32,000 bases of DNA from Candidatus Saccharimonadota bacterium. GTDB taxonomy: Bacteria; Patescibacteriota; Saccharimonadia; Saccharimonadales; UBA4665. The stretch covers positions 1,418,270 through 1,450,269 of the forward strand of contig CP025011.1 in NCBI GenBank assembly GCA_002952755.1, in the 5' to 3' direction. Position numbers and translations under genes: made by a program. Below, one piece after another: positions 6,041 through 27,773 of this stretch (positions are counted from its first letter, which is position 1; the number at the start of each line of letters is the position of its first letter). The notes under the pieces were generated by a model. That model was not told the DNA's origin. It saw only the letters and a list, made by a program, of their open reading frames with translations, and did no database searches.

Positions 6041-6135
6041 TCTAAGGTGTTAGCAAAAAGGAGCTTTTCTAAAAATCAAAAACAGAGGTACACATTGCCT
6101 CTGTTATGAGTTTTGTGATTATCAATTGGTACGCC
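6041..6135. repeat. direct repeat R1 (~95 bp), a copy of the 3' end plus terminator of the structured element at 7041..7196
   Basis: TCTAAGGTGTTAGCAAAAAG...AAACAGAGGTACACATTGCCTCTGTTATGAGTTTTGTGATTATCAATTGGTAC matches 6953..7050 with scattered substitutions. Confidence 0.7.
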
Positions 6136-6194
6136 GTTGTAGATGAAGTTGTAACCTGTATTATACAGGAAGCTCTGGAGATGGACCTTTACAT

Positions 6195-6216
6195 TCTAGA
6201 CTGTCTAGACTATTAT
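6195..6216 (+). promoter_or_regulatory. 15-nt perfect palindrome plus TATTAT box upstream of the antitoxin gene (candidate TA operator/promoter)
   Basis: TCTAGAC-T-GTCTAGA (6195..6209) is immediately followed by TATTAT (6211..6216). The antitoxin ATG lies at 6223. Confidence 0.3.
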
Positions 6217-6222
6217 GAACAT

Positions 6223-6471
6223 ATGATATGGCAACTGCAAGAAGCCAAGAACAAACTAAGCGAGGTCGTAGACACGAGCATTAACAATGGTCCGCAAATT
6301 ATTAGTCGGCACGGCCATAATGCCGCTGTCGTCATTAGCTACGCGGACTATCAGCGCTACATAGCATCCACAAAAGGATTGAAGAAGACGCTCCTATCAA
6401 GCGGCCTGGACGAGCTTACATTGGCCCGAGATAATTCCACTGTCGGTCGCACTACCGGCTTCTCGCTATGA
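6223..6471 (+). CDS. Phd/YefM-family type II antitoxin
   Basis: MIWQLQEAKNKLSEVVDTSINNGPQIISRHGHNAAVVISYADYQRY is the characteristic Phd/YefM N-terminal pattern. The stop overlaps the vapC start (ATGA). The track start at 6106 lies inside repeat R1 and was rejected. Confidence 0.8.
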   Translation: MIWQLQEAKNKLSEVVDTSINNGPQIISRHGHNAAVVISYADYQRYIASTKGLKKTLLSSGLDELTLARDNSTVGRTTGFSL

Positions 6472-6896
6472 TAACGGGTTACTTACTTGACACCAATGCG
6501 ATCAGTGAAGCGTCCAAAAAGAAGCCAGACACTGGTTTTATTGAGTGGTTCACAAAAACCGATGAATTAGCCATGTTTACTTCTTGTATTGTGCTTGGTG
6601 AAATTAAAAAGGGTGTTTCACTCATCCGGGACGAACCTAGACATAAACAGTTTGACACTCTTCTTGCTAAGCTCATCGTGCAGTTCGACGGTCGCATTGT
6701 AAATGTAGATAGTCGCACGGCTCTGCATTGGGGTGAACTACTGGCAACTGGCCAGCTCTCAGGGCAAACACCGCCTCTCATTGACGCGCTTATAGCCGCG
6801 CAATGTATTACACAGAATTTGATACTGGTAACACGTAACATGAGAGATTTTGAGCAATTTGCAGGGGTCAAACTACACAGCCCCTGGGTCGGATAG
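6468..6896 (+). CDS. vapC: VapC-type PIN-domain toxin (ribonuclease)
   Basis: PIN acidic residues appear in the usual contexts: YLLDTNAISE, LGEIKKG, LIDALIAAQ, LVTRNMRDF. There is a 4-nt overlap with the upstream antitoxin. Confidence 0.85.
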   Translation: MITGYLLDTNAISEASKKKPDTGFIEWFTKTDELAMFTSCIVLGEIKKGVSLIRDEPRHKQFDTLLAKLIVQFDGRIVNVDSRTALHWGELLATGQLSGQTPPLIDALIAAQCITQNLILVTRNMRDFEQFAGVKLHSPWVG

Positions 6897-7227: not shown

Positions 7228-7304
7228 TGGTACACCCGACAGGATTCGAACCTACGACCTTTGGCTCCGCAAGCCAACGCTCTATCCAGCTGAGCTACGG
7301 GTGC
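7228..7304 (-). tRNA. tRNA-Arg, anticodon GCG as read
   Basis: Reverse complement: GCACCCG TA GCTC AGCTGGATA GAGC G TTGGC TTGCGGA GCCAA AGGTC GTAGG TTCGAAT CCTGT CGGGTGT A CCA. This is a full cloverleaf with A20 in the D loop and an encoded CCA. The anticodon loop UUGCGGA gives anticodon GCG. Confidence 0.9.
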
Positions 7305-7381
7305 GTGTGCAACAGGGGTAATTCTAGCACGTTTACCAGTTAATTACCAGTAAATATATGGTAGAATGGAGCAGTATTTAC

Positions 7382-7472
7382 GGAGAGGTCGCATAGTTGG
7401 TCTAGTGCGCTGCACTCGAAATGCAGTATGGGTGCAAGCCCATCGAGGGTTCGAATCCCTCCCTCTCCGCCA
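7382..7472 (+). tRNA. tRNA-Ser (anticodon CGA)
   Basis: GGAGAGG TC GCAT AGTTGGTCTA GTGC G CTGCA CTCGAAA TGCAG, a long variable arm TATGGGTGCAAGCCCATC, GAGGG TTCGAAT CCCTC CCTCTCC G CCA. Confidence 0.92.
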
Positions 7473-7476
7473 GTAT

Positions 7477-7527
7477 AAAACAGCCTGCTAACTAGCCTAC
7501 TAACTAATATGCAGGCTGTTTTTATTT
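7477..7527. terminator. hairpin terminator between tRNA-Ser(CGA) and the convergent gene at 7536
   Basis: AAAACAGCCTGC...GCAGGCTGTTTTTATTTT. It has a 10-12 bp stem, a 22-nt loop and U-runs on both strands. Confidence 0.5.
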
Positions 7528-7535
7528 TAGGCAGG

Positions 7536-8111
7536 TTAAAAACGAACGCGGCGCATCAGCTGATCGAACCCATCTCTGACAGCAGGCTGCATAGGCAAGT
7601 GTGCGCCGAGGGCGGTCATAATGGCGTGCTCGTCTTCTGGCGAAAAATAGATACTTAAAGGCGGCATAAAACGCTTTAGCGGAGCAAAGGTGATGCTGGT
7701 GAATGCCCCCTCGTTAATGAGTGCAAACGATTTAAACTCGCCATAAGGGTGAAATTTCTGACCAATCGTCAGCCCGGACCGATCGAGCCGGTAGGTAAGT
7801 ACGCGCGGTTGGCGCGACGTGGCATATCCCAGCACACAACTTAAAATTACAATCACGACTACCGAAAAAATGTCACGGGTAAGTGCAAAAATACCGACGG
7901 CCAACAGCAAGCCAATACCTCCAAATCCAAGATACCAGGCGAAGCCTTTCTGGTGAGCTACGAACTCTGATGCCGTCCACTCGACATCCCCAGGCGCTGG
8001 GGCAGAGGGGCCGGGATTGGGGGTGGGGGTGTTGGCCGGTCCACTGCTTGGCGCGTATTGCCACCCGCTCTGAGGTTCCTGGCCGGTCGTTTTCTGATTG
8101 CCCTCATCCAT
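7536..8111 (-). CDS. membrane protein with Pro-rich N-terminus, two TM helices and a possible bacterial PH-like C-terminal domain
   Basis: MDEGNQ..PAPGDVEW, then FAWYLGFGGIGLLLAVGIFAL and IFSVVVIVILSCVLGYA. The following RVLTYRLDRSGLTIGQKFHPYGEFKSF resembles YdbS/YdbT-type PH domains (weak call). ATG 8111 is preferred over TTG 8129. Confidence 0.6.
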   Translation of the reverse strand: MDEGNQKTTGQEPQSGWQYAPSSGPANTPTPNPGPSAPAPGDVEWTASEFVAHQKGFAWYLGFGGIGLLLAVGIFALTRDIFSVVVIVILSCVLGYATSRQPRVLTYRLDRSGLTIGQKFHPYGEFKSFALINEGAFTSITFAPLKRFMPPLSIYFSPEDEHAIMTALGAHLPMQPAVRDGFDQLMRRVRF

Positions 8112-8275
8112 ATGCGCTTTATTGTACAACGTAGCATTATTGGTTGGTAGAGGGAAGTATGCGCGCTGCTTACGATCATGAGGGGGGTGTTAGCATCTCA
8201 GACCGATGCTCATCTTTACAAACTGAGATACGGTGACTGTCTGCAAAACAGTCGCAAAGCTGCTATCATCGGAAG

Positions 8276-8869
8276 GTGGAAAAAGGCAGTATTGTTTTTA
8301 CTGAAGTGAGTAGGCTTTACAATACAGCCGCAACAAGCATGGGCAAATGGATGTGGGACAACCATGTGCAATGGGTGACCAGCAAGGCCATCCAACTAGC
8401 CAAAAAATATGGAGCCGATACTCAAAAAGTATACTGCGCTGCTTTATTGCATGACCTAGGAGATGCACGATACGAGCGGGATCATTCCGCTTTTGAGTCT
8501 TGGTCGTGGGAGACGGGCAAGGCAATACTTAAAAAGGCCGGCCTTCGCAAAGCTGCGCGCGATGCGATTCTCGAAGCCATTCGCACACATTCATGTCATC
8601 CCGGTCACCTCCCAACAACCATTGAAGGGAAGGTGCTCGCCACAGCGGACGGCATGTGGCACGTGCAAACAAACTTCTTTCCAGTTATTTGCTACATGAA
8701 TCGGCCAGACACCACTAAAACATTCAATGAGTGGCAGGAGTGGTTTACGACCAAAATTGAGCGCGATTTCGGCCCTAAAATCTTCTTTAGAGACGAACGA
8801 AATGAGGTGCGTGAAAATTACGAAGCCCTCAAAAGAGTATTCGAGAATAAAACGTTGTCAAACCCCTAG
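8276..8869 (+). CDS. HD-domain metal-dependent phosphohydrolase
   Basis: The AALLHDLGD motif follows a helix in the usual position, with further His residues (IRTHSCHPGH). The track start is GTG 8276; the alternative ATG at 8339 is equally plausible. Confidence 0.75.
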   Translation: MEKGSIVFTEVSRLYNTAATSMGKWMWDNHVQWVTSKAIQLAKKYGADTQKVYCAALLHDLGDARYERDHSAFESWSWETGKAILKKAGLRKAARDAILEAIRTHSCHPGHLPTTIEGKVLATADGMWHVQTNFFPVICYMNRPDTTKTFNEWQEWFTTKIERDFGPKIFFRDERNEVRENYEALKRVFENKTLSNP

Positions 8870-9009
8870 CTCTACATCTGCTATCAGTAGAGTGGGTCTA
8901 TCTTGCATCGCTCCCCCGTTCAGTCGCTTTAGGCGTAGACCTGCACCGTATGCTCGTTCACTCTATACAATCAAAACAAAACAGCCTACTACTGCAGACT
9001 GTTTTGTTT

Positions 9010-9102
9010 TGGCGGAGAGGGAGGGATTCGAACCCTCGCGGGAACTTGCGCCCCCCTATCGATTTAGCAAACCGACCCCTTCAGCCGCTTGGGTACCTCT
9101 CC
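9010..9102 (-). tRNA. tRNA-Ser (anticodon GCU)
   Basis: Reverse complement: GGAGAGG TA CCCAAGCGGCTGAAGGGG TCGGT TTGCTAA ATCGA, a long variable arm, GAGGG TTCGAAT CCCTC CCTCTCC G CCA. Its acceptor and T arms are identical to those of tRNA-Ser(CGA). Confidence 0.92.
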
Positions 9103-9321
9103 ATATGGACCAAGTTATTGTACTACAATTGGTCTCTGTTGGCGAGTGATTTTAAAGACTTTGTTTCGAAGTCGACACCGGCACTTCGTTGTTCGATATA
9201 CCCAAATCTCTTTTGCCGCTCGCGGGTAGTGCGGATGCGAACGATATGCGGCAATTGCCGCAGCACTTTCTGCACGGCCCATAGATAACACCCGTTTTTG
9301 AATAATACCTAAATGAGCTAC

Positions 9322-9358
9322 ATCATAATTTCCATTTTCCATGGGCTGGCCTTGGAAG
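9322..9358. repeat. direct repeat, left copy (ATCATAATTTCCATTTTCCATGGGCTGGCCTTGGAAG)
   Basis: It matches 9760..9793 apart from two 1-nt indels. Both copies lie upstream (minus-strand sense) of a tRNA-Ser gene. Confidence 0.6.
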
Positions 9359-9544
9359 AGGTTGGAAAATCAGAATGAATGCAGATCGTACAAGGCGGGG
9401 GCGTCTGCTTCGAAGACTGGACGTGGGGAAGGGGTGGGATCGCTCCGTTTCACTTCGCTCCGCCGCTCGGACATGCTCGGTGCAAGCACCTGCGCGTGTC
9501 TTCGCTCTACCGAACCCACGGTGACGCGACGCTTGCGCGCCGCT

Positions 9545-9579
9545 CTCACCGTGGGTTCGAATCCCACACTCAACCGCCA
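9545..9579 (+). pseudogene. tRNA 3'-half-like fragment (T arm + acceptor + GCCA) without a recognisable 5' half
   Basis: CTCACC GTGGG TTCGAAT CCCAC ACTCAACC G CCA. The first 23 nt are identical to the corresponding part of tRNA-Ser(UGA) on the other strand, but the acceptor strand differs. No matching GGTTGAGT 5' strand or D/anticodon arms were found upstream. Confidence 0.4.
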
Positions 9580-9613
9580 AAGCAAAAGCCCGCTTTCATG
9601 CGGGCTTTTGCTT
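9580..9613. terminator. bidirectional hairpin terminator shared by the tRNA-like fragment and tRNA-Ser(UGA)
   Basis: AAGCAAAAGCCCGC-TTTCAT-GCGGGCTTTTGCTT is a perfect palindrome that extends into both flanking CCGCCA / TGGCGG ends. Confidence 0.6.
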
Positions 9614-9701
9614 TGGCGGAAGGGGTGGGATTCGAACCCACGGTGAGTTGCCCCACGACGGTTTTCAAGACCGTTACCATCGACCGCTCGGTCACCCTTC
9701 C
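9614..9701 (-). tRNA. tRNA-Ser (anticodon UGA)
   Basis: Reverse complement: GGAAGGG TG ACCGAGCGGTCGATGGT A ACGGT CTTGAAA ACCGT CGTGGGGCAACTCACC GTGGG TTCGAAT CCCAC CCCTTCC G CCA. A TATAAT box lies about 12 nt upstream (GGTGGTATAATCGCC). Confidence 0.92.
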
Positions 9702-9759
9702 GTAACAGAGGCGATTATACCACCAATCAGGATAATCGAGCAAAACGGACTGCCGCTAG

Positions 9760-9803: not shown

Positions 9804-10466
9804 TTAGGCGGCAGCGAAAACTGCTGCGCTTACTCGGCGGGCTCCGGCGCTTTTTAGCGCTTGAGCGGCCGCTTCGCATGTTGCACCCGTTGTAAGAACA
9901 TCATCAATCAAAAGTACATGCTGGTTTAACAATTCTGGTCGAATGGCCCGGAATGCATTCCGCATCTGGCGCTGACGTTGTGTGCGTTTTTGTCCCACTT
10001 GGCGCTGCTCTCCGGTGCGCACGAGCAAGGTAGCGTAAGAAATACCGACACGCCTGGCCAAAGCACGGGCAATAAGCGCAGCCTGGTCGTACCCACGTTG
10101 GCGTACGCGTGCGGGCGCGGTTGGTATGTGACTAATAACAGTACACTCTCTCACTTCTAGGCAGTCGGCGAGCAAAGCAGCCATGTCATCGGCCGCTTTG
10201 CGACAACGGTCAAATTTTAACTTATATACAAGCTCTTTGGCTGCAGCATCGTACATTGTGCCCACCCACACCCTATATAAATTTGACGTCGATCTACAAA
10301 GGCGACAAGTACGAAAATCGTCAGTCAACCGCTTGCAGCGATAGCAGCGCGACGGAAAGGCAGGGATGGTTTGGCTGCACGAAGCACATAATAAGCGTCC
10401 TTCACTACCGCACAATAGGCAGTCATAAGGGGCCACGAGGGAGAGTAATTGATCTACTATGCTCAT
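9804..10466 (-). CDS. comFC: ComF-family protein (ComFC-type phosphoribosyltransferase-like competence protein)
   Basis: There is an N-terminal 4-Cys zinc finger (CLLCGSEG..CASC, then CYRC..C..C) and a C-terminal PRTase motif VLLIDDVLTTGAT. ATG 10466 (MSIVDQLL) is preferred over TTG 10508. Confidence 0.85.
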   Translation of the reverse strand: MSIVDQLLSLVAPYDCLLCGSEGRLLCASCSQTIPAFPSRCYRCKRLTDDFRTCRLCRSTSNLYRVWVGTMYDAAAKELVYKLKFDRCRKAADDMAALLADCLEVRECTVISHIPTAPARVRQRGYDQAALIARALARRVGISYATLLVRTGEQRQVGQKRTQRQRQMRNAFRAIRPELLNQHVLLIDDVLTTGATCEAAAQALKSAGARRVSAAVFAAA

Positions 10467-10588
10467 GTTGTATTTTTTGTGTTGTAAATAACCCGTTTGC
10501 GGTTGCAACCTAAATATTACCTAAGCTATACTACCATTAACACAAACATTCGAACACCTTAGAACTAAGTACGTGGAGGGTAACAACT

Positions 10589-11074
10589 ATGGCGCGACGC
10601 ACAAGTGGCGACGACGACCTGCTCATGCAAGAGGACGAATTAACCGCCGCTTTTTTGGGTGATGATGAAGCAATTGCTCCAGCAGATACCCAGAGCGCAG
10701 GCGCTGGACCAACGGCCGCAAATGATGATTGGGACGAAAGCGAAGACCTGCCAGGGCAACTCGCAGTAGACGTATACGAAACCAGAGAAAAACTGGTTGT
10801 AAAAGCCCGGACTGCCGGTGTAAATAAGAGTGACCTTGACGTTAGTATTTCTGACAACACACTCAGTATTCGCGGCACATTATCTGCCGGCAACGAAGAC
10901 GGAGTAGAGAACTACTTTGTTCAGGAATGCTACTGGGGCGAATTCTCTCGCAGCATTGCGCTGCCGGTGCCAGTTAAGGAAGAAGAGATCGAAGCTGTTC
11001 TTAAAGACGGCGTCCTTACCATCAGCTTTGCAAAAGTAAAACAGGATACGGTAAAAAAGATCCAGGTCCTCTAA
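10589..11074 (+). CDS. Hsp20/alpha-crystallin family small heat-shock protein
   Basis: The alpha-crystallin domain pattern is LAVDVYETREKLVVKARTAGVNKSDLDVSISDNTLSIRG...FSRSIALPVPVKEEEIEAVLKDGVLTISFAK. GGAGGG lies 8 nt upstream of the ATG. Confidence 0.9.
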   Translation: MARRTSGDDDLLMQEDELTAAFLGDDEAIAPADTQSAGAGPTAANDDWDESEDLPGQLAVDVYETREKLVVKARTAGVNKSDLDVSISDNTLSIRGTLSAGNEDGVENYFVQECYWGEFSRSIALPVPVKEEEIEAVLKDGVLTISFAKVKQDTVKKIQVL

Positions 11075-11371: not shown

Positions 11372-11404
11372 TAAAAACCCGCCTTTTTTAGGGGCGGATT
11401 TTTG
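11372..11404 (-). terminator. intrinsic terminator at the end of the pilin operon (readable on both strands)
   Basis: The minus strand reads CCGCCCC-TAAAAAA-GGCGGG followed by TTTTTAT, 23 nt downstream of the stop of the last pilin gene. Confidence 0.55.
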
Positions 11405-11426: not shown

Positions 11427-11879
11427 TTACGGTCCTGCCGGCGCTCCGGTGCCCGTATTGTTCACTTTGTCGAAGACAAACTTAACAACAACTTGTGCCA
11501 GAGCAACGATAACGAGGCCGATTACCGCATACACAATAGTGTTTTTGGCGCTGGTAATATTGCCTGAATCGCCCCCGGAAGTAATGTACTTAAAGCCGCC
11601 AAGCACGATCATGATAACGGCAATAATACCGACTACGATAGAGAAAATGTTTATAACCGTAGTAACAATATTCTGGACTTTGGTCGCCGATGATTGGTCG
11701 GCACTCGTATCAGCAGTACAAGTCTGGCCATTACCAGCAGTGCTCAACCCGGTGCCTTGAGATAAGCAGTCGCCGATAGTAGGAGCTGCATGCACCGCAA
11801 CAGGCACTAGCGCAGGCACAATGCTAAGCGCAAGAGTGGCGACGATAGCCGCGAAATGCTTACGAACGGTTTGTAACAT
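11427..11879 (-). CDS. T4SS pilin-like protein (TrbC/VirB2-type helical hairpin), paralog 1
   Basis: 150 aa. The signal peptide ends VAVHA|AP and is followed by a short Ser/Thr/Gly-rich ectodomain with 2 Cys. Then comes IFSIVVGIIAVIMIVLGGFKYITSGGDSGNITSAKNTIVYAVIGLVIVALAQVVV (helix-loop-helix). AAGGA lies 10 nt upstream of the ATG. Confidence 0.8.
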   Translation of the reverse strand: MLQTVRKHFAAIVATLALSIVPALVPVAVHAAPTIGDCLSQGTGLSTAGNGQTCTADTSADQSSATKVQNIVTTVINIFSIVVGIIAVIMIVLGGFKYITSGGDSGNITSAKNTIVYAVIGLVIVALAQVVVKFVFDKVNNTGTGAPAGP

Positions 11880-11959
11880 AATGAAATGTCCTTTCTTTGA
11901 ACGCTTTATTTACGTTATACCACAGGCATAAGCCGCATTACAATGGCACCGGAAAAAAA

Positions 11960-12409
11960 TTAGGATCTTGCTTTGGCCTTAACTGGGGGCGGGGTAGCAG
12001 TCGAGGTAGTGACGACATACTTAACGAGAATTTGAGCAAAGAACACCAATACCAAGCCAATAATTGCGTACGTAATAGTTTGCTTAGCCTTGGAAACAGC
12101 ATTGGCGTCACCCCCAGAAGTTATATAACGAAACCCGCCAACCATCATCATAATCACCGCAACAATACCGACTATGATACTAAGTATGTTCACTGCCGAA
12201 GCAATCGTATTGTCCAGGGATGGGCCGCTACTTACACACACTGCGCCAGTACCCGGATTTGTCCAGGTACCCCCCGAACCAATACAAGCCTGCTGCTTAG
12301 CAGCATCAGTAGAAGTGTCGGCCGAAGCTGGAGCGGGTAACAGCCAGTTGCTCGCAACGACGCTAATAAGAGTTACGCTTATGAGCAATATACGCCTGAA
12401 TATATACAT
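11960..12409 (-). CDS. T4SS pilin-like protein, paralog 2
   Basis: 149 aa. The signal peptide ends APASA|DT and the ectodomain has 2 Cys. The hairpin is ILSIIVGIVAVIMMMVGGFRYITSGGDANAVSKAKQTITYAIIGLVLVFFAQILV, followed by a Pro/Lys tail. Confidence 0.8.
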   Translation of the reverse strand: MYIFRRILLISVTLISVVASNWLLPAPASADTSTDAAKQQACIGSGGTWTNPGTGAVCVSSGPSLDNTIASAVNILSIIVGIVAVIMMMVGGFRYITSGGDANAVSKAKQTITYAIIGLVLVFFAQILVKYVVTTSTATPPPVKAKARS

Positions 12410-12419
12410 GTTGCCTCCA

Positions 12420-12833
12420 TTATTTCACGATATTAACAGCTAGGGCAAGAATTGCTTGGGCAAGAAGAATAACGAGCAGCCCAATGCCTGCAGCAATCAT
12501 GGTACGCCGGGCGTTCGCCGCTTTATTGGGATCGCCAGCGGCCGTAACATAATTAAAACCACCGACTATCATTAAAATTACCGCGGCGATACCTGAGACA
12601 GTCGACAGTATGAGCCCAACCTTGTACAAAATGCCGTTGGTGCCGCCAATAGGATTTTGCCCACTCGTCGTACAAACCGTTGAAGGGTTTTTGCCGGGCG
12701 TATTAGTCACACCTGTGTTCGAGCAGGCGTTTTGAAATGGATTAAAAGCTGCTGCTGAATGTGGTAAGAAAACAAAGACGATTCCAAACGCCAGTACAAA
12801 AACCGTAACCAGCAAGCGCGTATGTCGCAACAT
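12420..12833 (-). CDS. T4SS pilin-like protein, paralog 3
   Basis: 137 aa. The signal peptide ends HSAAA|FN and the ectodomain has 2 Cys. The hairpin is ILSTVSGIAAVILMIVGGFNYVTAAGDPNKAANARRTMIAAGIGLLVILLAQAIL. Confidence 0.8.
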   Translation of the reverse strand: MLRHTRLLVTVFVLAFGIVFVFLPHSAAAFNPFQNACSNTGVTNTPGKNPSTVCTTSGQNPIGGTNGILYKVGLILSTVSGIAAVILMIVGGFNYVTAAGDPNKAANARRTMIAAGIGLLVILLAQAILALAVNIVK

Positions 12834-12846
12834 ATTATATTACCTC

Positions 12847-13542
12847 CTATATATGACCAAGTGCATAGTTAACAATCGAGAAGGCAAGCATGGATACAAC
12901 CAGTCCAATAGCAGCATATATAATCGTGTTTTTCGTTTTTGCCATAGTATTAGGGTCGCCATTGGAAGTAACGTAGCGCAATCCGGCGATAATCAGCACT
13001 AATAACGCCACGCTGCCAAATAGCCCAATCACAATATTATAGAGGGAGAGAAGTGTAGTATTTGATGCCGCTGCATTAGGCAGGCTACTTAGGTCTACCC
13101 CGCTTGAGGTTTTGCCTGCACCTCCAGTTCCACCAAGACTCTCGCCAAGGAACCGTACGGCAGCAGCAGCGACGACGGTGATTCCTAGACCCACGAGGGA
13201 ATTAATAATGGTGCCGAGGGCATGCTTGGCTTTTTCGGGTTCACCCTGCGCGGTTATATATTGAAAGCCGGCATACACGATAAACCCGATGGCAACCAGA
13301 GCGCCGACACGGAGCAAAATATCGACAACACCAAGACCGACCAAACCAATCGAGCTAAGATCAAGATTACCGGTTGTATGATCAATAAAATGCGGGTCCA
13401 CCGAACAAAGACCGCTCGAATCTATTGTTACGTACTTCGCCCTGTCGAGATACTCAAACCACGAAGGGATCCCAAAGAAATTTCCTGGCTCCGGGCAGGG
13501 GCTCGCTCCAGCGGCAAAATGAGTCAATATATCCAAAAACAT
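12847..13542 (-). CDS. tandem double T4SS pilin-like protein (two hairpin modules in one chain), paralog 4
   Basis: 231 aa. Module a is LLRVGALVAIGFIVYAGFQYITAQGEPEKAKHALGTIINSLVGLGITVVAAAAV. Module b is IGLFGSVALLVLIIAGLRYVTSNGDPNTMAKTKNTIIYAAIGLVVSMLAFSIV. They are joined by a Gly/Ser linker. There is no obvious N-terminal signal peptide (MFLDILTHFAAGASPCPEPG...). Confidence 0.75.
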   Translation of the reverse strand: MFLDILTHFAAGASPCPEPGNFFGIPSWFEYLDRAKYVTIDSSGLCSVDPHFIDHTTGNLDLSSIGLVGLGVVDILLRVGALVAIGFIVYAGFQYITAQGEPEKAKHALGTIINSLVGLGITVVAAAAVRFLGESLGGTGGAGKTSSGVDLSSLPNAAASNTTLLSLYNIVIGLFGSVALLVLIIAGLRYVTSNGDPNTMAKTKNTIIYAAIGLVVSMLAFSIVNYALGHI

Positions 13543-13570
13543 GTCGATACCAGATACCGTTCATTACTCA

Positions 13571-14185
13571 TTATAGGATACCTCCGGGTGTAATCCACTG
13601 CAGGAAGGCCCACAAAAATCCAAAGGCTATAATCGCTATAACCGCATTAATAATACGCTGCTGAGCCGCTGCTGTGACATTCGGCTGGTCTGCCGAGGTG
13701 CTGTACTGAATACCCGCGACAATAATAGAAATGACAGCGGCAAGTACTACCACGACAGCCAATGTATTAATAATGGGATTTAGGTATTGGCGAACGATGC
13801 TGCACTGCTGCTGCGGGTCGAGTTCTGTTGGGCAATTGTTCCCACCTTTTGCGGCATTGTCAGTGCTGCCCGACGCGGTCTGAGCCTGGACGACATTCTT
13901 GGCTTGAAAAACGTCCCCGGAACAGTCGGATTGCGATACCCAGCCTTTCGCGGCATCCGATAGGGTGTAACATTTACCGGCTGCAAAGATGCCTTTACTC
14001 GGAGCTTTACCGTCCACGGGAAGGGTAGGAGTATCTGCGCATTGTGTAGTTATGCCAGCTAGTGCGTCAAAACATAATGCAGGACTGGCAGCGTGCACAA
14101 TGGCTGCCGGAAATACTGCCGACGGTACCGCGACTGCCGCACTGAAGAGGACTACTTGAATTATGTGTTTTACGCGCTGCAGCAT
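13571..14185 (-). CDS. T4SS pilin-like protein with enlarged 6-Cys ectodomain, paralog 5 (first gene of the operon)
   Basis: 204 aa. The signal peptide ends AIVHA|AS and is followed by a ~105-aa ectodomain with 6 Cys. The hairpin is INTLAVVVVLAAVISIIVAGIQYSTSADQPNVTAAAQQRIINAVIAIIAFGFLWAFL. Confidence 0.75.
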   Translation of the reverse strand: MLQRVKHIIQVVLFSAAVAVPSAVFPAAIVHAASPALCFDALAGITTQCADTPTLPVDGKAPSKGIFAAGKCYTLSDAAKGWVSQSDCSGDVFQAKNVVQAQTASGSTDNAAKGGNNCPTELDPQQQCSIVRQYLNPIINTLAVVVVLAAVISIIVAGIQYSTSADQPNVTAAAQQRIINAVIAIIAFGFLWAFLQWITPGGIL

Positions 14186-14469
14186 ATCTTCCGTTTTTTA
14201 GTTCTGCTTATTATAGAGTATAGGTCATCGCAGAATAATCACAAGCTACCCCGTATTTACACTTATCCCTACTCGCGTCATCCCGGATCTATTCTTACCG
14301 ACTTCATGTATTCCGCTGCTGGATGTCGGTCAAGTCCGGGAGGACCAAGAGTGGACGTTTTAAGACATGCGCGGGCACGAGCAGACGGGTATAAGCAACC
14401 GCATGCTCGTTGTATTAAATAGTGCCTGCTGCTACACTTTAACTTGAAAGCAAAGAGATACTACAAAGC
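14186..14469. promoter_or_regulatory. divergent control region between the pilin operon and the T4SS machinery operon
   Basis: 284 bp non-coding. On the minus strand a perfect TATAAT (14210..14215) sits 25 nt from the pilin ATG. On the plus strand TTGTAT-17 nt-TACACT (14410..14438) sits 31 nt from ATG 14470. An inverted repeat ACGAGCA...TGCTCGT (14377..14410) abuts the plus-strand -35 box. Confidence 0.35.
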
Positions 14470-14904
14470 ATGCGTCCTCGTCGATTAATCGTCATAGCTT
14501 CGCTGGCAACCATCATTTTAGTGGCCATTCCTTTGATTTTTATTCATAAGGGCGATGGTTATCGTGGTGTTTGTGACTCGCTACTAAAAGATATTCAAAA
14601 AAACGATGCTGCCAGCAGCTACAGTTTGCTTTCTGATACAGCCAAACGCACTGACTCGCTTTCTAGCTGGACGGGTAAAGTAAAGTTGCTCTACAACGTC
14701 TACTATAAAAGTACAGTTACGCCCGTAAAAAGTGTCGATTTAACCACCACTGTCAATAAAAAGAAGGGGCCGACGCGTATCGAGTACGTCTATACGGTTA
14801 CTAATCAATTTGCCACCTCCGATGCACTTTGCTACGCCACGAAGCCTTCAGGCTATAAAGTAGATTCTTTCTCGAGCGCAGTGAGACAGGAGGGCACTCA
14901 ATGA
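14470..14904 (+). CDS. small N-terminally membrane-anchored protein, unknown (possibly NTF2/DUF4878-like)
   Basis: 144 aa. The TM anchor is LIVIASLATIILVAIPLIFI. The following LLKDIQKNDAASSYSLLSDTAKRTDSLSSW pattern is typical of small anchored NTF2-like proteins (weak). The stop overlaps the next start. Confidence 0.65.
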   Translation: MRPRRLIVIASLATIILVAIPLIFIHKGDGYRGVCDSLLKDIQKNDAASSYSLLSDTAKRTDSLSSWTGKVKLLYNVYYKSTVTPVKSVDLTTTVNKKKGPTRIEYVYTVTNQFATSDALCYATKPSGYKVDSFSSAVRQEGTQ

Positions 14905-17900
14905 GGCGCCCTAAAGTTGCGAAAATTGGGCACTCGTTTCAGCAAGCCACTATCATTTTCGCCGCCCTAGTTGGAATCATTCTGCCTGCGACCGCACCTT
15001 TTCTCAAAACCAGCCATGCAGATGAGGTTGGAACGTCTTTTACTACTATAAATGGAGGCATATTCAAGGGTCCCGGCGGTGGAGTACCTATCGCTCATGC
15101 TATTGCATGTAAGGGGGGCATGATACCGGGACAGACGCTTGCGGCCACTAGTATAGATACGTCACTCGGCCGAAATCCGGCTGGCGATTCTGGCAACACC
15201 TTCAATGATGTCTATAATTCTACCGGTATGTATGCTGGCTTGCCCCGGCAGACAAACATCTTCGGATATCTGGGTCTTCCTGCTGCTGGCCGCGACCCTG
15301 GTGCCATACCCGAAGCAACAGCCACTGCATGGACATCATATATTTATGACCACTTTAACCAGCGAGTTACCACCCTAGGCCTTTTTCAAGGAGTAAATGG
15401 GCCTGGCCTGGACCCATGCGGATCAGGGCCAAACCGTCAATCAGATACGCCGCATCTTGTCATGATTCCAGTCGCTGACGATACTTGGGTCGCGTCGCAG
15501 TACAGCAATATTATTGCACAGGGAGGAGTTGGACAGCCAGCCCTGATTATCTTTCATCAAACCGGGCTGTCTCCTGCGGGTAACGCTGTTGGCTCCCTCT
15601 CATATTGGTACCCTGATTCCAGTAAAGGTATAGGCATGGCCTACAAGGGGCTGGACACTCAGGGTAAGCCTATCAACGGCGGCCCTCAGCAGAACGTTAT
15701 CGTTGAGGGCGTGTCCACCTCATCTAATCCTGTTGCTACAGGTAATGTCTCTAACGCTGAGTGGGTAGACGTGTCGACTATTAAAATACAGGTGAGCTAC
15801 AATGGCGGCGCACCTATTACAGAAACGTACATCAACCCTTCGTGGGATAATCATAGTTTCTATTTCCTGGCGAGCACTCCAAGCCCGACTCGTCAGGCCC
15901 TTATAGGCGCGGCCAAACAAGCCGATCCGTTCAGTAACGCCGCGCAAAACCAGGTACCTTTTATATGGATTCCGGACGCCGGCTTTACCGAACATAACGG
16001 CGAAGGTATTCTTAACTTATCCTACGATCGGCTCAGTCAGAGCCCGGGACTTGGTGACCTAAATCATAACATCGCCGGGTACACGTTTGCCAATCCGGCG
16101 TTTTATGATTACTCCCCCGGAAACCCGCCTGTGCCTGTTGGCCATGATGGAAAAAATCCGGCCCTTCCGGCAGGTCAGGTTATTACCAATAGCAGCCATC
16201 TTAATGGCGATATCTGGTTCTATGGCAGCAAAGCAAGCAATGCCTTTGTTACTGCTTGGACCAAAGGCAATGGCAACGAGCAGAACTATATTGGAGTCTA
16301 CACCTTTGACAATGCATCAAAGTTTTACGTGCACAGTGCCAAAGACTGTTCTGCGCTTGGCCAGATTAATTTAGGCACAACTATTGATAATATTACGCCG
16401 AACACAGAATTTCCGATACCGAAGTGGACCCTAGAGCCGCCGGGCCAATCCTGTCAGCCCCCTGCATATGGCAGCATCACCAAAGCATATGCAATTATTG
16501 ATGACCAAAAATTCACGGCTATCTCGGGCATTATAGCCGGCGCTGCTGCCAATTCGAATGGAAATAACCAGCAGTTGATATGTGATATCGGATGGAATCC
16601 TCTCACATGGCTGATTTGCCCGATCGCCCAAGGCGCCATCTCTCTGGCTGGTACGTTCGATACTGCCATCAACGACATGCTCAATATAAGCGTCAATACC
16701 TATCTAGACGAAAGTAAGCCCGGATCGGCAGGGGCAGATTTTTATGCAGCCTGGAACAGTTTCCGCGTTATCTCCATGGCGCTCATTGTAATTGCTGGGT
16801 TGATAATGGTGATGTCGCAAGCGCTGGGTGCCGAACTACTGAATGCTTACACCATCAAAAAAATGCTGCCTCGATTGCTCATGGCCGTCGTGTTCATTGC
16901 TGCTTCATGGCAACTACTTAAAGCGGCGGTAACTGCATCAGACGTGGTCGGCTACGGGACACGTTATCTTATCTACAAGCCATTTAGTACGGGGTTAGGT
17001 GCCGCCCACATTGGCGCAGGCACATCCGACGTTCTAGGAGTGTTAGGGGGTGCGGCTGTTGTTGGCCTAGGTATTTTTGGCATCTTGAGCTTTGCACTTA
17101 CTGGTCTACTTGCGTCACTGGTTGGATTCGTGTTGCTTACGTTCCGGGAAATGGTCGTTTTATTTGCGATTGCAATATCTCCTGTCCCCATCGCACTCTC
17201 TATCTTGCCGAATACCCGTAAGGGCTGGAAGATTTGGGGGGATACTCTGAGCGGCGCACTCCTGATGTTCCCGATTGTGGCTGGCTTTATCGCGATAGGC
17301 CATGTCTTTGCTCAAGTCGCCGCAAAAGTAAATGCCGGCGTGATCGGCCAACTCATATTTATCATCGCCTACTTTGCACCATACTTCCTTATTCCTTTAG
17401 CCTTCCGTCTGGCTGGCGGCCTGGTAGCCACAGTAGGTGGAGTAGTGAACGACCGCAGCAAGGGTGCCTTTGACCGTCTTAAGAATTATCGCTCCAACAA
17501 ATTCAAAACCAACATGCAAAAGGTTGCTGAAGGACGGCGCTTTAACGAGCTTGGTCAATTCCAAAGTAATAACCTGCTTGCACGGACAGCTAACCGGGGT
17601 ATTCGCGGGCTCAACCGGGGTATTAGTGGTTTTAATGATACAACTGAGGTCGCCGGTGCTTTCGGTGCAGCAGAAGCAAAATTCGGTTTCTTAACGAATC
17701 GGGGAATACGCCAAGCTGCCCTAAGCCAACATCGTGACATGGTTGGCGCCAAATACGCTCAGACCGGACGGGCGCAGGCGACCAAGGAAGACGACCTACT
17801 GCACCAAGCACGAACGTTCGGCAGCGAAGAAGAAGCGCGTGCCGGCCTCGCTGCCCGCTTCCGAAATATGAATTACGACGTCAACACTGACGAAGGACGC

Positions 17901-18872
17901 CGCAACATGGAAGCAGCCCTTTCTGCCGCCCGGGCAGCAGGCGGATACAGCAGGGCATACCAACGCTACTCATTGCGTCGCCTTGCAGCTACAGGAACTG
18001 GCTATGGTGACGTGGGCGACATGCTGCGTGCAGTAAGTGACGTGGCCGGAGATAATCGCGCCGAAGCTTCTGCCTTGCTCGGCGAATTAAATGCTGTTTC
18101 TGGCAATGTAGGCCGTCACGACCTCAAGCTTGGGTACGGTACTCAAATGCGCTTGTACGACCGGCTTCAGGCAGCCGGCCACCTGACCGAGGAAGAAGTT
18201 GACGATGCGGTGTATACAGCCGATAAAGACCTCGATAGCGTCAGCCGTATTCGCGACAAAAAGGTCTCCGTCGAAAACCTGAGCAAATCAACGGCACGGG
18301 TGTTTAGGCGCCTGGAGGTTCAGCGCGATACTGCCACTGACCCTGTTGTCATACAACAAGCTCGCGACGAACTGGATCGAGCAACGGGCCTTATCAACAA
18401 GGCGGAATCAGCCTTTGCATATGGATCTACGACGAATGTACAGGCTACTAATGATAACGTCGGCCGTGCGACCAGCGGCGCAAATACCGGCCTGGTAGTC
18501 GAAAACGCCGCGTATAACCCCGCGCTTCCGCCCTCACCGACAAATCCGCAAACTATATACGTTCCCGCCACTGGCCGGCGACGTGTGCAAATGGAGGCTA
18601 ACCCTGTGGAAACAAAGATTAACCCAACAACTGACCGACCTGAAATTACCTACGAGATCGCTCGCTATCCCGCAGGACATGCGTTGGCGGGGCAGGAAAT
18701 TATCGACGAATTTGGTACTCCAACACTATATAGAGATCCTGACACTGGCCGCCCCGTTCTCAGACAAAATCCAGCTACGAATGCTGTCACACAGCGTTCT
18801 GCGGAAAACCAACGTATCTACGGCGTAGGCACGGGCACGGGCGACCCTCAAAACAACGGTCTTATAACCTAA
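14901..18872 (+). CDS. giant VirB6/TrbL/PrgH-like polytopic T4SS membrane protein with large extracytoplasmic N-domain and charged C-domain
   Basis: 1323 aa with an ATGA overlap with the upstream gene. The signal peptide is ..FLKTSHA|DE and is followed by a ~560-aa Cys-containing exodomain. Six or seven TM helices lie around aa 620-880 (FRVISMALIVIAGLIMVM, LLMAVVFIAASWQLL, MVVLFAIAISPVPIALSILP, LLMFPIVAGFIAIGHVF, LIFIIAYFAPYFLIPLAF), then a ~440-aa Arg/Asp/Ala-rich tail. The family call rests on architecture and context, not alignment. Confidence 0.7.
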   Translation: MRRPKVAKIGHSFQQATIIFAALVGIILPATAPFLKTSHADEVGTSFTTINGGIFKGPGGGVPIAHAIACKGGMIPGQTLAATSIDTSLGRNPAGDSGNTFNDVYNSTGMYAGLPRQTNIFGYLGLPAAGRDPGAIPEATATAWTSYIYDHFNQRVTTLGLFQGVNGPGLDPCGSGPNRQSDTPHLVMIPVADDTWVASQYSNIIAQGGVGQPALIIFHQTGLSPAGNAVGSLSYWYPDSSKGIGMAYKGLDTQGKPINGGPQQNVIVEGVSTSSNPVATGNVSNAEWVDVSTIKIQVSYNGGAPITETYINPSWDNHSFYFLASTPSPTRQALIGAAKQADPFSNAAQNQVPFIWIPDAGFTEHNGEGILNLSYDRLSQSPGLGDLNHNIAGYTFANPAFYDYSPGNPPVPVGHDGKNPALPAGQVITNSSHLNGDIWFYGSKASNAFVTAWTKGNGNEQNYIGVYTFDNASKFYVHSAKDCSALGQINLGTTIDNITPNTEFPIPKWTLEPPGQSCQPPAYGSITKAYAIIDDQKFTAISGIIAGAAANSNGNNQQLICDIGWNPLTWLICPIAQGAISLAGTFDTAINDMLNISVNTYLDESKPGSAGADFYAAWNSFRVISMALIVIAGLIMVMSQALGAELLNAYTIKKMLPRLLMAVVFIAASWQLLKAAVTASDVVGYGTRYLIYKPFSTGLGAAHIGAGTSDVLGVLGGAAVVGLGIFGILSFALTGLLASLVGFVLLTFREMVVLFAIAISPVPIALSILPNTRKGWKIWGDTLSGALLMFPIVAGFIAIGHVFAQVAAKVNAGVIGQLIFIIAYFAPYFLIPLAFRLAGGLVATVGGVVNDRSKGAFDRLKNYRSNKFKTNMQKVAEGRRFNELGQFQSNNLLARTANRGIRGLNRGISGFNDTTEVAGAFGAAEAKFGFLTNRGIRQAALSQHRDMVGAKYAQTGRAQATKEDDLLHQARTFGSEEEARAGLAARFRNMNYDVNTDEGRRNMEAALSAARAAGGYSRAYQRYSLRRLAATGTGYGDVGDMLRAVSDVAGDNRAEASALLGELNAVSGNVGRHDLKLGYGTQMRLYDRLQAAGHLTEEEVDDAVYTADKDLDSVSRIRDKKVSVENLSKSTARVFRRLEVQRDTATDPVVIQQARDELDRATGLINKAESAFAYGSTTNVQATNDNVGRATSGANTGLVVENAAYNPALPPSPTNPQTIYVPATGRRRVQMEANPVETKINPTTDRPEITYEIARYPAGHALAGQEIIDEFGTPTLYRDPDTGRPVLRQNPATNAVTQRSAENQRIYGVGTGTGDPQNNGLIT

Positions 18873-19015: not shown

Positions 19016-20893
19016 ATGGCTTTTCCAATAGCACTAGTAGGGGAATTTCCTGAACTGGCACATCGAAATCCGAATGTGATGATCGAGCCACGAGTGGCCG
19101 ATGTACCCGGCAATCCATTGACCGTCCAAGACCGAACCGCAAACATACATGCTGTCCACGACGAAATGAGCAACTTGCGCCGACAGCTTATAGATATGAA
19201 TCGGGCTGAAGGAAATCTATTACCTGGCGGGAATGTCGGCAACTTAACAGCAGGCATAGACCCCCGCGGCCGAAGTAGCACGCGGGCGGCATATAGCGCT
19301 AACCTGCGACGAGATCGTCTTACGCGACAACACGAAGCCATAGACGACCGTTTACACTCGCTATCCGACACTCAAGAAAGGTTACGAGATCTCGTAAATA
19401 CGGGAGGGAATCTCGATGACCATATACCCGGTATCGGGGACCGCATCGAAGCGGCACAAAACGTCGAAGACGCCTCCGAGCGCATGGTTGACGGCGCCGA
19501 AGCCGCAGAGCAGCGTGCACGAGCTGTCGAAAACTACCGCTACCACACTATGGAAGCACGCATGGCTTTTGAAGCGGCACACCCAGAACCGCATGCAGAT
19601 GCCGACCGGCAACTAGTGCTCCGGCTCAGAATGAACAGCCTCATTGGCTGCGCGATTAACGCGTCACTTGGTGACCCTAATGAGCAGCGACTAGGTGGCC
19701 GTGGCAATAGGGAAGCAGCCCTGGGGCGAGAAGAGCACTCGAGACAACTTGCATATGCTATTGCCGCGCGTGACGAGTTGGAAGGTTTATCGTTTTTGAC
19801 CAGCGATACATTCGAGCCGCTCATTACGAGGCACATAATTGCAAGACAGCGTTCAGCCAACCTTGGTTTTGAGGTTGATATACGATTAAGCAAAACTCGT
19901 ATTGGCGATGAGCTTGAGCAAAATGACGTCAATGTCGTAAACCATACACAAGATCTCCGTATGGAAACTATTGAGGGGATGCAAATCCATTCTACTGGTC
20001 GTGCCAACGAGCTGGCTGACGCCATTATTGCGGACTACCGTAACGAAGAACGCCTTGCACACCGCCCTGATCAGAGCCTCAACACGTACGACAGAGTCTA
20101 CACTCGGGATGGCGGCATACTAACTCATCATGGCGTAGTCAGGTATGATGACGGAAGTCAGGCCCGATACAATGGTACGAACTGGGTAAGGAGAAACTCT
20201 GACGGTAATGTATGGACCGGGCGGCCGACAGCAAACTTCAACGTGCCGGGCTTTTATACTGACGGATCTTTGGATACCTTACCGCTCAACGATTTCTATG
20301 ATAGAGTGCTCGAGAGGCGGGATCGGGCTGAAGAAGTCCGAGGTCCGAACGCAACTCGCGAGGCCTATTTTATGGACCGGGCTTTTACTGAAAGATGTAC
20401 GGCTGAGATTGCAAACATAAACACTCTCACCGACCAACTTCGCGGTCAAGTCACTGACTTAGACACTTACAGGACTGAGTGGCAAAATGAAATGGCACAA
20501 ATTCAAGGACGCTACGCTCCCGGTACCCCGCCAGCTAACTATGCGCAAGCCGACTGGAGTCGTTGGAGCAAGCTACATGACGCTATTACGCTTAATCAAG
20601 CCAACACCAATCTACTCCATCAGCAAATCCATGATGCTGAAGCACCTATAGGTGACATCCGGATCGCTGAGAACGTCACACGCTACTGGATGGCACGTTA
20701 CGAAGTAAACTATCGTAATCCAAGGGACACATCGAACAATCGCACGATGAGTCGTCGCGGCCACGTATTTCTAGATAATGTCACTATAAACGGTGTCCAT
20801 GGTAACTGGGAGATAGCCATTGGCGGTAGTGGATATCATACCGACCCTAACACCGGTGTAGCCACTTATTACCATCCGGATGGCACCGTTTAG
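19016..20893 (+). CDS. 625-aa soluble, highly charged protein of unknown function
   Basis: Long ORF with no hydrophobic segment, rich in Arg/Asp/Glu/Asn, and with predicted helical stretches (e.g. ERLRDLVNTGGNLDD...AEQRARAVENYRYHTMEARMAFEAAH). No motif recognised. Confidence 0.7.
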   Translation: MAFPIALVGEFPELAHRNPNVMIEPRVADVPGNPLTVQDRTANIHAVHDEMSNLRRQLIDMNRAEGNLLPGGNVGNLTAGIDPRGRSSTRAAYSANLRRDRLTRQHEAIDDRLHSLSDTQERLRDLVNTGGNLDDHIPGIGDRIEAAQNVEDASERMVDGAEAAEQRARAVENYRYHTMEARMAFEAAHPEPHADADRQLVLRLRMNSLIGCAINASLGDPNEQRLGGRGNREAALGREEHSRQLAYAIAARDELEGLSFLTSDTFEPLITRHIIARQRSANLGFEVDIRLSKTRIGDELEQNDVNVVNHTQDLRMETIEGMQIHSTGRANELADAIIADYRNEERLAHRPDQSLNTYDRVYTRDGGILTHHGVVRYDDGSQARYNGTNWVRRNSDGNVWTGRPTANFNVPGFYTDGSLDTLPLNDFYDRVLERRDRAEEVRGPNATREAYFMDRAFTERCTAEIANINTLTDQLRGQVTDLDTYRTEWQNEMAQIQGRYAPGTPPANYAQADWSRWSKLHDAITLNQANTNLLHQQIHDAEAPIGDIRIAENVTRYWMARYEVNYRNPRDTSNNRTMSRRGHVFLDNVTINGVHGNWEIAIGGSGYHTDPNTGVATYYHPDGTV

Positions 20894-27766: not shown

Positions 27767-27773
27767 GAGTAGT

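Follow-up and report, generated by a model that had tools for sequence, protein, structure and literature searches.

Why should a single type IV secretion system (T4SS) locus carry a row of dissimilar pilin genes, and are these genes alternatives to one another or parts of one structure? The question is raised by a 32,000-nucleotide (nt) stretch of DNA from a Candidatus Saccharimonadota bacterium (UBA4665; assembly GCA_002952755.1, contig CP025011.1, positions 1,418,270-1,450,269; GC content ∼50%), referred to here in its whole length as the window, in which the minus strand between 11427 and 14185 contains five open reading frames (ORFs) in the same direction that encode six helix-loop-helix modules. 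Divergent arrays of VirB2-like pilins have been published and reviewed for Saccharibacteria and other Candidate Phyla Radiation (CPR) bacteria (PMC10633639; PMC12102498; PMC12857230), so the novelty implied by an earlier, sequence-only reading of this region, which had set its several pilins against the single pilin of classical systems, did not survive; the window array is a gene-fusion variant of the published array type and not a new kind of system. A six-pilin array, SEML1_0014-0019, is essential in Southlakia epibionticum (Wang 2023, Cell, PMC10633639), its six PF18895 proteins having been scored GD/ES/ES by transposon sequencing (Tn-seq; Table S1 of that paper), and 383 CPR assemblies have yielded 441 VirB2 arrays with 2-11 genes each and an identity averaging 25%, for which a role in variation or host range was suggested (Quinonero-Coronel 2025, Microb Genom, PMC12102498). 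The role of the T4SS in Saccharibacteria has been termed 'completely unknown' (PMC11665869). The reading that we favour, and consider probable though well short of certain, is that the region is the VirB2-like pilin array of a chromosomal, monoderm-type (MPF_FATA-related) T4SS, the counterpart of SEML1_0014-0019, and that its six hairpins form non-redundant parts of one heteromeric tube.

Five genes and six pilin modules

The five co-oriented ORFs lie at the positions given in the sequence-only reading and are numbered here by module, in amino acids (aa):

13571-14185, minus strand: p1, first pilin gene, 204 aa; signal peptide ending …AIVHA, followed by AS; ∼95-aa ectodomain with 6 Cys; one hairpin
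12847-13542, minus strand: p2+p3 (p2+3), 231 aa, two-module pilin without a classical signal peptide
12420-12833, minus strand: p4, pilin of 137 aa; signal peptide ending …HSAAA, followed by F; 2-Cys ectodomain; one hairpin
11960-12409, minus strand: p5, pilin of 149 aa; signal peptide ending …APASA, followed by D; 2-Cys ectodomain; one hairpin
11427-11879, minus strand: p6, last pilin gene, 150 aa; signal peptide ending …AVHA, followed by AP; 2-Cys ectodomain; one hairpin

The order of transcription is p1, p2+3, p4, p5, p6, with intergenic gaps of 28, 13, 10 and 80 nt, and the proteins contain 6, 2, 2, 2 and 2 Cys residues, respectively; both the 10-80 nt spacing and the Cys counts agree with what had been read earlier. 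Kyte-Doolittle hydropathy identified a pair of hydrophobic helices in each module (making four in the 231-aa protein), which form the C-terminal part of every array protein and are separated by a short polar loop with a net positive charge. The six hairpin cores could be aligned without internal gaps, at pairwise identities of 22-51%. The loop motif said to be common to all modules was recovered in its strict form five times in the six-frame translation of the window, always within the pilin genes, and in none of 200 shuffles; the loop of the sixth module (AGIQYSTSADQ) is slightly off the strict motif and matches it more loosely. Putative signal peptides with n-, h- and AxA-type regions were seen by inspection in p1, p4, p5 and p6, whereas none of the classical type was seen in the 231-aa protein, which is laid out as an N-terminal Cys16…FFGIPSWFEYL…Cys46 segment, a first hairpin (∼aa 62-136), a Gly/Ser-rich linker of ∼25 aa that retains the 'SLP' motif of p3, and a second hairpin (∼aa 161-230).

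Profile searches bore out the assignment of these proteins to the VirB2/TrbC-type pilins. All five matched PF18895 (T4SS_pilin), with E values from 9e-6 to 4e-21 (p2+3, 3.7e-21 over two stretches; p4, 8.6e-9; p5, 1.5e-15; p6, 2.2e-13), and four of them exceeded the gathering cut-off of 26.6 bits (50.5, 57.5, 35.8 and 75.4 bits). The fifth, p1, fell just under it (26.1 bits, E 9.4e-6) and was also recovered by NF045849 (E 5e-9) and by a hairpin hidden Markov model (HMM) built here. The TrbC/VirB2 profile PF04956 (cut-off 27.9 bits) was just passed by p6 (28.2 bits), with p5 at 27.4 bits and p2+3 at 21.9 bits, and had no match to p1 or p4. NF045849, which represents the pilin-like conjugal transfer protein Mbov_0395 of a Mycoplasma integrative and conjugative element (ICE), matched all five proteins (E 1e-8 to 1e-14), but the four single-module proteins scored 31.8-36.6 bits, under its equivalog cut-off of 40 bits, and the fused protein reached 53.2 bits only through the summing of its two modules; on these scores the window proteins are relatives of that family and not members of it. 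AlphaFold2 predicted a pair of long helices in p6 (H58-100/H108-141; predicted local distance difference test score (pLDDT) 71.5) and four in p2+3 (H62-97/H102-136/H161-192/H197-230; pLDDT 63.6). For the S. epibionticum homologues, TM-scores of 0.73-0.75 to predicted TrbC/VirB2 and DUF4134 proteins have been reported (Wang 2023, Table S2, PMC10633639). The Pfam and NCBIfam matches, together with synteny with PrgI, TraC-like and VirB4 genes, thus support the prediction that the array proteins are VirB2/TrbC-type T4SS pilin paralogues tied to a VirB4/VirB6-type machine.

A conserved order of modules, with fusions and a promoter-like motif

An HMM made from the six window hairpins was searched against all ORFs of ∼80 related loci. 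Exactly six modules was the modal state, seen in 55 of 84 arrays, and the statistics on position, architecture and gaps given below were drawn from 53 six-module arrays. At positions 1, 2 and 3 the window module was the best match at the same position in 45, 47 and 40 of 52 arrays, respectively, and between loci generally the best match fell on the same position in 82% of comparisons for p1, 84% for p2, 71% for p3 and 81% for p6. Positions 4-6 form one subfamily, most members of which match window p6. Identity at the same position between loci (43-59%) was as high as, or higher than, that between different positions within a locus (39%); paralogues closer within a genome than across genomes, the mark of lineage-specific amplification, were not found in the array.

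The positions also differ in build. The most variable is p1, whose orthologues range from 92 to 327 aa and from 0 to 13 Cys, with an ectodomain identity of 20%. Orthologues of p2 have ∼131 aa, two Cys, low N-terminal hydrophobicity and a conserved Cys…FFG[LI]PxWYxYL…Cys signature, those of p3 have ∼101 aa and usually no Cys, and those of p4, p5 and p6 have ∼134-140 aa, a signal peptide and two Cys. Between loci, conservation is highest and evolution slowest at p6 (hairpin identity ∼59-60%), for which there were more than 5000 homologues, the top 120 of them 54-74% identical over the full length. The conserved hairpins and divergent, Cys-paired ectodomains that had been described among the paralogues recur among orthologues, with identities of 38-60% for hairpins vs 20-33% for ectodomains and with most Cys columns retained in 82-93% of sequences (both p4 columns in ∼90% of orthologues). 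The canonical set is one of six single-hairpin genes, p1 to p6, divergent from a VirB6-like/PrgI/VirB4 operon. Arrays of 5-7 hairpin genes with weak similarity (24-36%) were also seen in three metagenome-assembled genomes (MAGs) labelled Gammaproteobacteria (L081, L082 and L083); either these are CPR contigs that were mis-binned or pilin arrays occur there separately.

In the 231-aa gene, canonical genes 2 and 3 are fused, and it is because of this fusion that the window has five genes for six modules. Six separate genes are present in 43 of the 53 six-module arrays, and in 43 of the 53 the p2 and p3 halves are separate genes of ∼131 and ∼101 aa; the other 10 arrays contain fused neighbours (2+3 in five, 1+2 in four and 4+5 in one). 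The 231-aa protein has twelve full-length homologues, down to 39% identity, and the 1+2 fusions contain the p1 signal peptide, Cys-rich domain and hairpin followed by the p2 signature and hairpin. Fusions are spread over several separate branches of a crude neighbour-joining tree of p4-p6 sequences, and in locus L020 (8886-9601), which lies inside the fused clade of the window and L004-L007, genes 2 and 3 are separate and overlap by 4 nt; the switch between fusion and fission seems to be an easy one.

The p2 signature, Cys-x(4-8)-FFG[LI]PxWYxYL-x(n)-Cys, is specific to this family, being found in the N-terminal 60 aa of the 231-aa protein (13363-13542) and in the p2 genes of L008-L049, and the domain that carries it had no match in Pfam. 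A classical signal peptide precedes the motif in L018, L021 and L043 and is lacking in the window lineage. It was considered whether the short 'FAAxxC' start of p2 makes it a lipoprotein, and this was rejected: the leader is too short and uncharged, and in some orthologues a normal signal peptide stands before the same Cys.

Between neighbouring pilin genes there is an overlap or a space of a few nt (medians of -2.5 to +9 nt); the exception is p6, which is preceded by a spacer with a median of 72 nt (interquartile range 57-79). The candidate expression signals of the window array, including one in this spacer, are as follows:

11915-11943, minus strand: candidate internal promoter within the spacer of 80 nt that precedes p6, TTGTAA-N15-TGGTATAA, with an extended -10; a cross-locus motif
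14217-14244, minus strand: candidate array promoter, TTGTGA-16-TATACT, from a consensus scan (9/12 matches); weak, a consensus match alone
11379-11397, no strand assigned: GC-rich hairpin with T-runs on both sides, from a terminator scan and the sequence, ∼30 nt beyond the p6 stop codon

The motif at 11915-11943 is followed by the ribosome-binding site AAGAAAGGA. In related loci, 43 of the spacers that precede p6 are 45 nt or longer; of these, 31 contain the pattern TTGnnn-N13-16-TGnTA[TG]AA, at 23-40 nt from the -10 element to the start codon, and 38 contain an AAGAAAGG-type ribosome-binding site. The density of the motif is 9.3 per kb in these spacers vs a background of 0.044 per kb in the same loci (∼200-fold). 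Its sole other full match in the window (9715-9743, minus strand) lies 13 nt upstream of the gene for tRNA-Ser(tga) (9614-9701, minus strand), which supports the motif as a real promoter type, and the data suggest that it is the strong-promoter type of this organism. A generic sigma-70 scan missed the site at 11915-11943 because the last base of its -10 element is C; the motif came from the cross-locus comparison. A structured RNA in the spacer before p6 was also considered and ruled out, as folding z-scores against shuffles had a median of ∼0, and since the spacers have no excess of RNA structure the promoter reading is preferred. The weaker candidate promoter at 14217-14244 sits in the 284-nt divergent intergenic region that the array shares with the T4SS operon. 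At the other end of the array, the hairpin at 11379-11397 has a weaker stem on the minus strand (5 clean pairs), followed by GTTTTTAT, and is a possible bidirectional terminator.

The adjoining operon and its surroundings

The array is flanked by the following genes:

14470-14904, plus strand: first gene of the divergent T4SS operon, 144 aa, one N-terminal transmembrane (TM) helix, no family match
14901-18872, plus strand: VirB6-like by position, a polytopic membrane protein of 1323 aa (hydropathy)
19016-20893, plus strand: soluble protein of the T4SS operon, 625 aa, only weak coiled-coil-type matches
20959-22227, plus strand: PrgI-family (VirB3-like) protein, 422 aa (PF12666, E 2.4e-12)
22237-23250, plus strand: TraC-like protein, 337 aa (PF26593, precomputed for the identical protein on Logan contigs)
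23250-25154, plus strand: VirB4-type ATPase, 634 aa (PF19044 P-loop_TraG, E 2.7e-27; AAA_10, E 4.9e-13)
25166-29300, plus strand: two co-oriented genes of 866 and 508 aa, one TM helix each, no family match
30622-31680, minus strand: RecF-like gene (SMC_N/AAA_23), flanking the T4SS operon
10589-11074, plus strand: Hsp20 gene, convergent with the array (PF00011, precomputed)

The PrgI, TraC-like and VirB4 genes are 7-11 kb from the array, in the adjoining divergent operon, to which the 866-aa and 508-aa genes probably also belong; family searches of the scanned operon genes gave no match to a relaxase. The 1323-aa protein had no match in Pfam or NCBIfam. Its layout resembles that of an 'extended VirB6' (an N-terminal TM helix, an outer domain of ∼580 aa, at least six TM helices at aa 620-850 and a C-terminal domain of ∼470 aa), and its gene holds the position of SEML1_0013, the model of which aligns with TrbL/VirB6 at a TM-score of 0.50 (Wang 2023, Table S2, PMC10633639). 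The whole locus was found in identical form on three Logan contigs, all of which carry the 144-aa gene, and its nearest relatives among 185,579 species genomes are almost all MAGs of Saccharibacteria/Saccharimonadales.

The convergent arrangement of Hsp20 gene and array is common to the window genome and S. epibionticum (SEML1_0020), in which the Hsp20 gene was scored essential (Wang 2023, PMC10633639); the linkage may be functional, for example if Hsp20 is a chaperone for hairpin proteins, or merely syntenic. Just past the Hsp20 gene (9804-10508, minus strand) is a gene for a ComF-like phosphoribosyltransferase that has CxxC pairs at its N-terminus and might have to do with competence. Further away are a cluster of four tRNA genes at 7228-9701 (Arg-gcg and three tRNA-Ser: cga, gct and tga) and a pair of overlapping genes for a Phd/YefM antitoxin and a PIN-domain toxin (6106-6896, plus strand). 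In S. epibionticum the order is dnaA-dnaN-recF and then the T4SS (PMC10633639), and the window probably adjoins the replication origin.

One structure or alternatives, and the closest known systems

Several functions had been proposed for the array from the sequence, among which a mixed or ordered heteromer is the one favoured here and antigenic or host-range variation is argued against. In the favoured reading each protein would insert into the membrane as a helical hairpin with its N- and C-termini outside and its positively charged loop inside. Signal peptidase I would cleave the signal peptides of p1, p4, p5 and p6, and a disulfide may stabilise the small N-terminal domains. The hairpins would then be extracted and stacked on the VirB6-like platform, in a process powered by VirB4, and so polymerise into one heteromeric tube that spans the envelope or projects from it toward the host cell. 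The six modules would be non-redundant parts of this tube, with subunit roles and stoichiometry that we infer as follows. The bulk (major) subunit would be p6, because no other module is as conserved and its gene is preceded by a conserved promoter motif of its own and by a strong ribosome-binding site, with p4 and p5 as p6-like minor subunits. A 1:1 adaptor pair, translationally coupled or fused and here without a signal peptide, may be formed by p2 and p3, and p1, with the largest, most variable and Cys-rich ectodomain, would be the distal element in contact with the host. A fixed, ordered and essential set of genes, coupled or fused neighbours and a most-conserved last gene with a promoter of its own all fit heteromeric assembly. 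A more specific proposal, which we put forward tentatively as a possibility, is that the six modules build one ordered conduit in which gene order mirrors structural neighbours, as the repeated fusions of adjacent genes suggest, with p6 as the separately promoted bulk subunit, p2-p3 as an obligate 1:1 adaptor on the VirB6-like platform and the hypervariable, Cys-rich p1 as a host-recognition tip that would functionally replace the missing VirB5.

Several observations weigh against a fixed heteromeric tube. A filament of these proteins has been seen in no Patescibacterium, and reviews treat a pilus as a possibility only. Foldseek searches of the PDB with the AlphaFold2 models returned no pilin and nothing at E ≤ 0.001 (best E 0.14 for p2+3 and 1.1 for p6), the matches of both models being generic helical bundles, and a profile of 41 p6 homologues run against all PDB sequences found no solved VirB2/TraA, only a spurious match to cytochrome bd at E 2.4; the fold result is a weak negative, given the moderate pLDDT of the models and the poor discrimination that simple hairpins allow. 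What ties the array to classical pilins is thus profile matches and predicted topology, and as tblastn of p6 against 72,556 plasmids gave no match, BLAST detects no link to plasmid pilins. The fixity of the set is itself incomplete. Positional orthology is weak for p4 and p5 (27-30% on the diagonal, most of them matching p6), and the p4-p6 subfamily remains poorly resolved, leaving room for turnover; some Saccharibacteria have 7-9 modules (L030, 9169-13787; L034, 9548-14043; L018, L025, L029, L046, L063 and L072), so part of the array does turn over. The faster evolution of ectodomains than of hairpins is also compatible with diversifying selection. In the Tn-seq data the pilin genes are small and received 11-15 insertions in the input library (PMC10633639), and the essentiality of p1-p5 could be due in part to polar effects. 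Finally, the fused protein has no signal peptide and so its topology is uncertain, and the candidate promoter before p6 is known from its motif and not from the mapping of a transcription start. The product would be either a projecting pilus or a short envelope-spanning stalk.

The second of these products is the first alternative to be weighed: the hairpins, still of the VirB2 family, would make no projecting pilus but would line a channel, or form a stalk, as a short heteromer within the membrane or slightly beyond it, sized to the thin monoderm envelope and the tight contact between epibiont and host. Saccharibacteria have not been reported to bear a T4SS pilus, contact between cells is already secured by type IV pili and adhesins, and a fixed set of six distinct, stoichiometrically coupled subunits is more like a defined complex than an open-ended polymer; in Gram-positive systems, moreover, the VirB2-like PrgF has been modelled as a short assembly on VirB6 (bioRxiv 10.64898/2025.12.18.695078). 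Against this, the p6 promoter and the high conservation of p6 suggest one subunit in excess, as for a polymer. We regard a short stalk as rather improbable; it differs from the favoured reading in length, not in kind.

Under a second alternative the proteins would be interchangeable major pilins, any one of them able to build the structure, whose diversity serves antigenic or host-range variation and suits different host strains. Such a role is the one proposed for the VirB2 paralogues of Bartonella Trw and Anaplasma, and it has been suggested for CPR arrays (Quinonero-Coronel 2025, PMC12102498); it would accommodate the low identity within arrays (22-51% here, mean 25% in the literature; PMC12102498), the rapid divergence of the ectodomains, the poor resolution of p4, p5 and p6 by position, and the range of array size (2-11 genes across CPR, up to 9 modules in the loci compared here). 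However, across widely diverged Saccharibacteria p1, p2, p3 and p6 keep a fixed order and form stable orthologue groups, which are not products of lineage-specific amplification, and each position has an architecture of its own. All six genes were scored essential in one host under one laboratory condition, so they are not redundant; the fusion of neighbours would make no sense for alternatives used singly; and there is a single conserved internal promoter, with no sign of a switching mechanism. Variation is thus disfavoured, because the paralogues are old, positionally conserved orthologue groups, each scored essential in S. epibionticum, and we consider it unlikely.

Two further readings have little to recommend them. 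Signal peptides on four of the five proteins, and the labels 'Sec secreted array' and 'putative effector genes' given to such genes in papers on TM7x, might point to Sec-secreted effectors or small toxins delivered by the T4SS, but two long C-terminal hydrophobic helices that match T4SS_pilin are the architecture of a membrane anchor or pilin and not of a soluble effector, and T4SS substrates are not normally exported by Sec; the reading was ruled out on that architecture, and we give it very little credence. That these are unrelated small membrane proteins, holin-like for example and pilin-like by composition only, is barely credible, as the weak and spurious matches to two-helix membrane families (DctQ, cytochrome bd subunit II) stand against specific PF18895 matches above a curated threshold, a loop motif found nowhere else in the window and in no shuffle, and a strict, conserved linkage to VirB4, PrgI and VirB6-like genes, which effectively refute it.

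To judge from S. epibionticum, Saccharibacteria depend for their epibiotic life on the T4SS and its pilin array, which may be the conduit by which these cells, with their reduced genomes, draw what they need from their hosts. The comparison gives this conduit a testable structure, with a fixed six-part set, a candidate major subunit with a promoter, a repeatedly fused adaptor pair and a variable candidate tip, and so points experimenters to the genes that should come first for tagging, quantification, depletion or modelling; the published idea that such arrays serve antigenic or host-range variation is also weakened by it. The conserved set and order, the neighbour fusions, the high conservation of p6 and the promoter motif before p6 are details that were not found in Wang 2023 or Quinonero-Coronel 2025, and in a term search of the latter (PMC12102498) promoter, orthologue, heteropolymer and pilin fusions were not mentioned. 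If true, an ordered six-module conduit would give VirB2-type fibres their first example of a multi-subunit architecture with division of labour.

How, then, does the window array stand beside the systems already known? It is like SEML1_0014-0019 of S. epibionticum in its six tandem PF18895 modules, divergent from a VirB6-like/PrgI/VirB4 operon and convergent with Hsp20, in the long gap before the last pilin gene (83 nt there, 80 nt here) and in its place near recF and, probably, oriC. It differs in that genes 2 and 3, separate among the six genes of S. epibionticum, are one 231-aa protein, and in the lengths of the first two genes (132 and 185 aa there; 204 aa and then the p2 half here); essentiality is on record for the S. 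epibionticum array and not for that of the window. It also resembles the CPR VirB2 arrays and the 'Sec secreted array' of TM7x, which are tandem, highly divergent VirB2-like genes near virB4 and commonest in Saccharimonadia, and it fits the published description of 2-11 genes at a mean identity of 25% (PMC12102498), but the comparison made here gives no support to the variation or host-range reading put on them.

A further comparison is with PrgF_B2 of pCF10, other VirB2-like proteins of Gram-positive conjugative plasmids and Mbov_0395 of the Mycoplasma ICE, which are likewise small hairpins, their two helices joined by a short charged loop, from genes beside VirB6 in a monoderm T4SS. PrgF_B2 is a single VirB2-like hairpin that is required for conjugation in a Gram-positive T4SS and has been modelled as a pilus on pentameric VirB6 (bioRxiv 10.64898/2025.12.18.695078). 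Unlike these systems, which have one functional copy and transfer DNA, the window has six modules with added Cys-paired N-terminal domains. The array shares with the VirB2/TrbC/TraA pilins of diderm bacteria (PF04956) a putative long signal peptide (in four of its five proteins), a two-helix hairpin, a basic loop and VirB4/VirB6 neighbours; in contrast to their single major pilin and separate VirB5 tip, there are six modules here, in a monoderm setting without the VirB7/9/10 outer-membrane core. Several tandem VirB2 paralogues in one T4SS locus are also found in Bartonella Trw (TrwL) and in Anaplasma phagocytophilum. Those copies are recent, lineage-specific amplifications thought to give surface variation, whereas the paralogues of the window belong to ancient, ordered orthologue groups. 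The final comparison is one of functional analogy only: in type IV pili and the pseudopili of type II secretion an abundant subunit is accompanied by scarce, non-redundant, co-transcribed paralogues that prime or cap the fibre, although their fold is unrelated, their assembly machine is another, and no prepilin-peptidase motif is present in the array.

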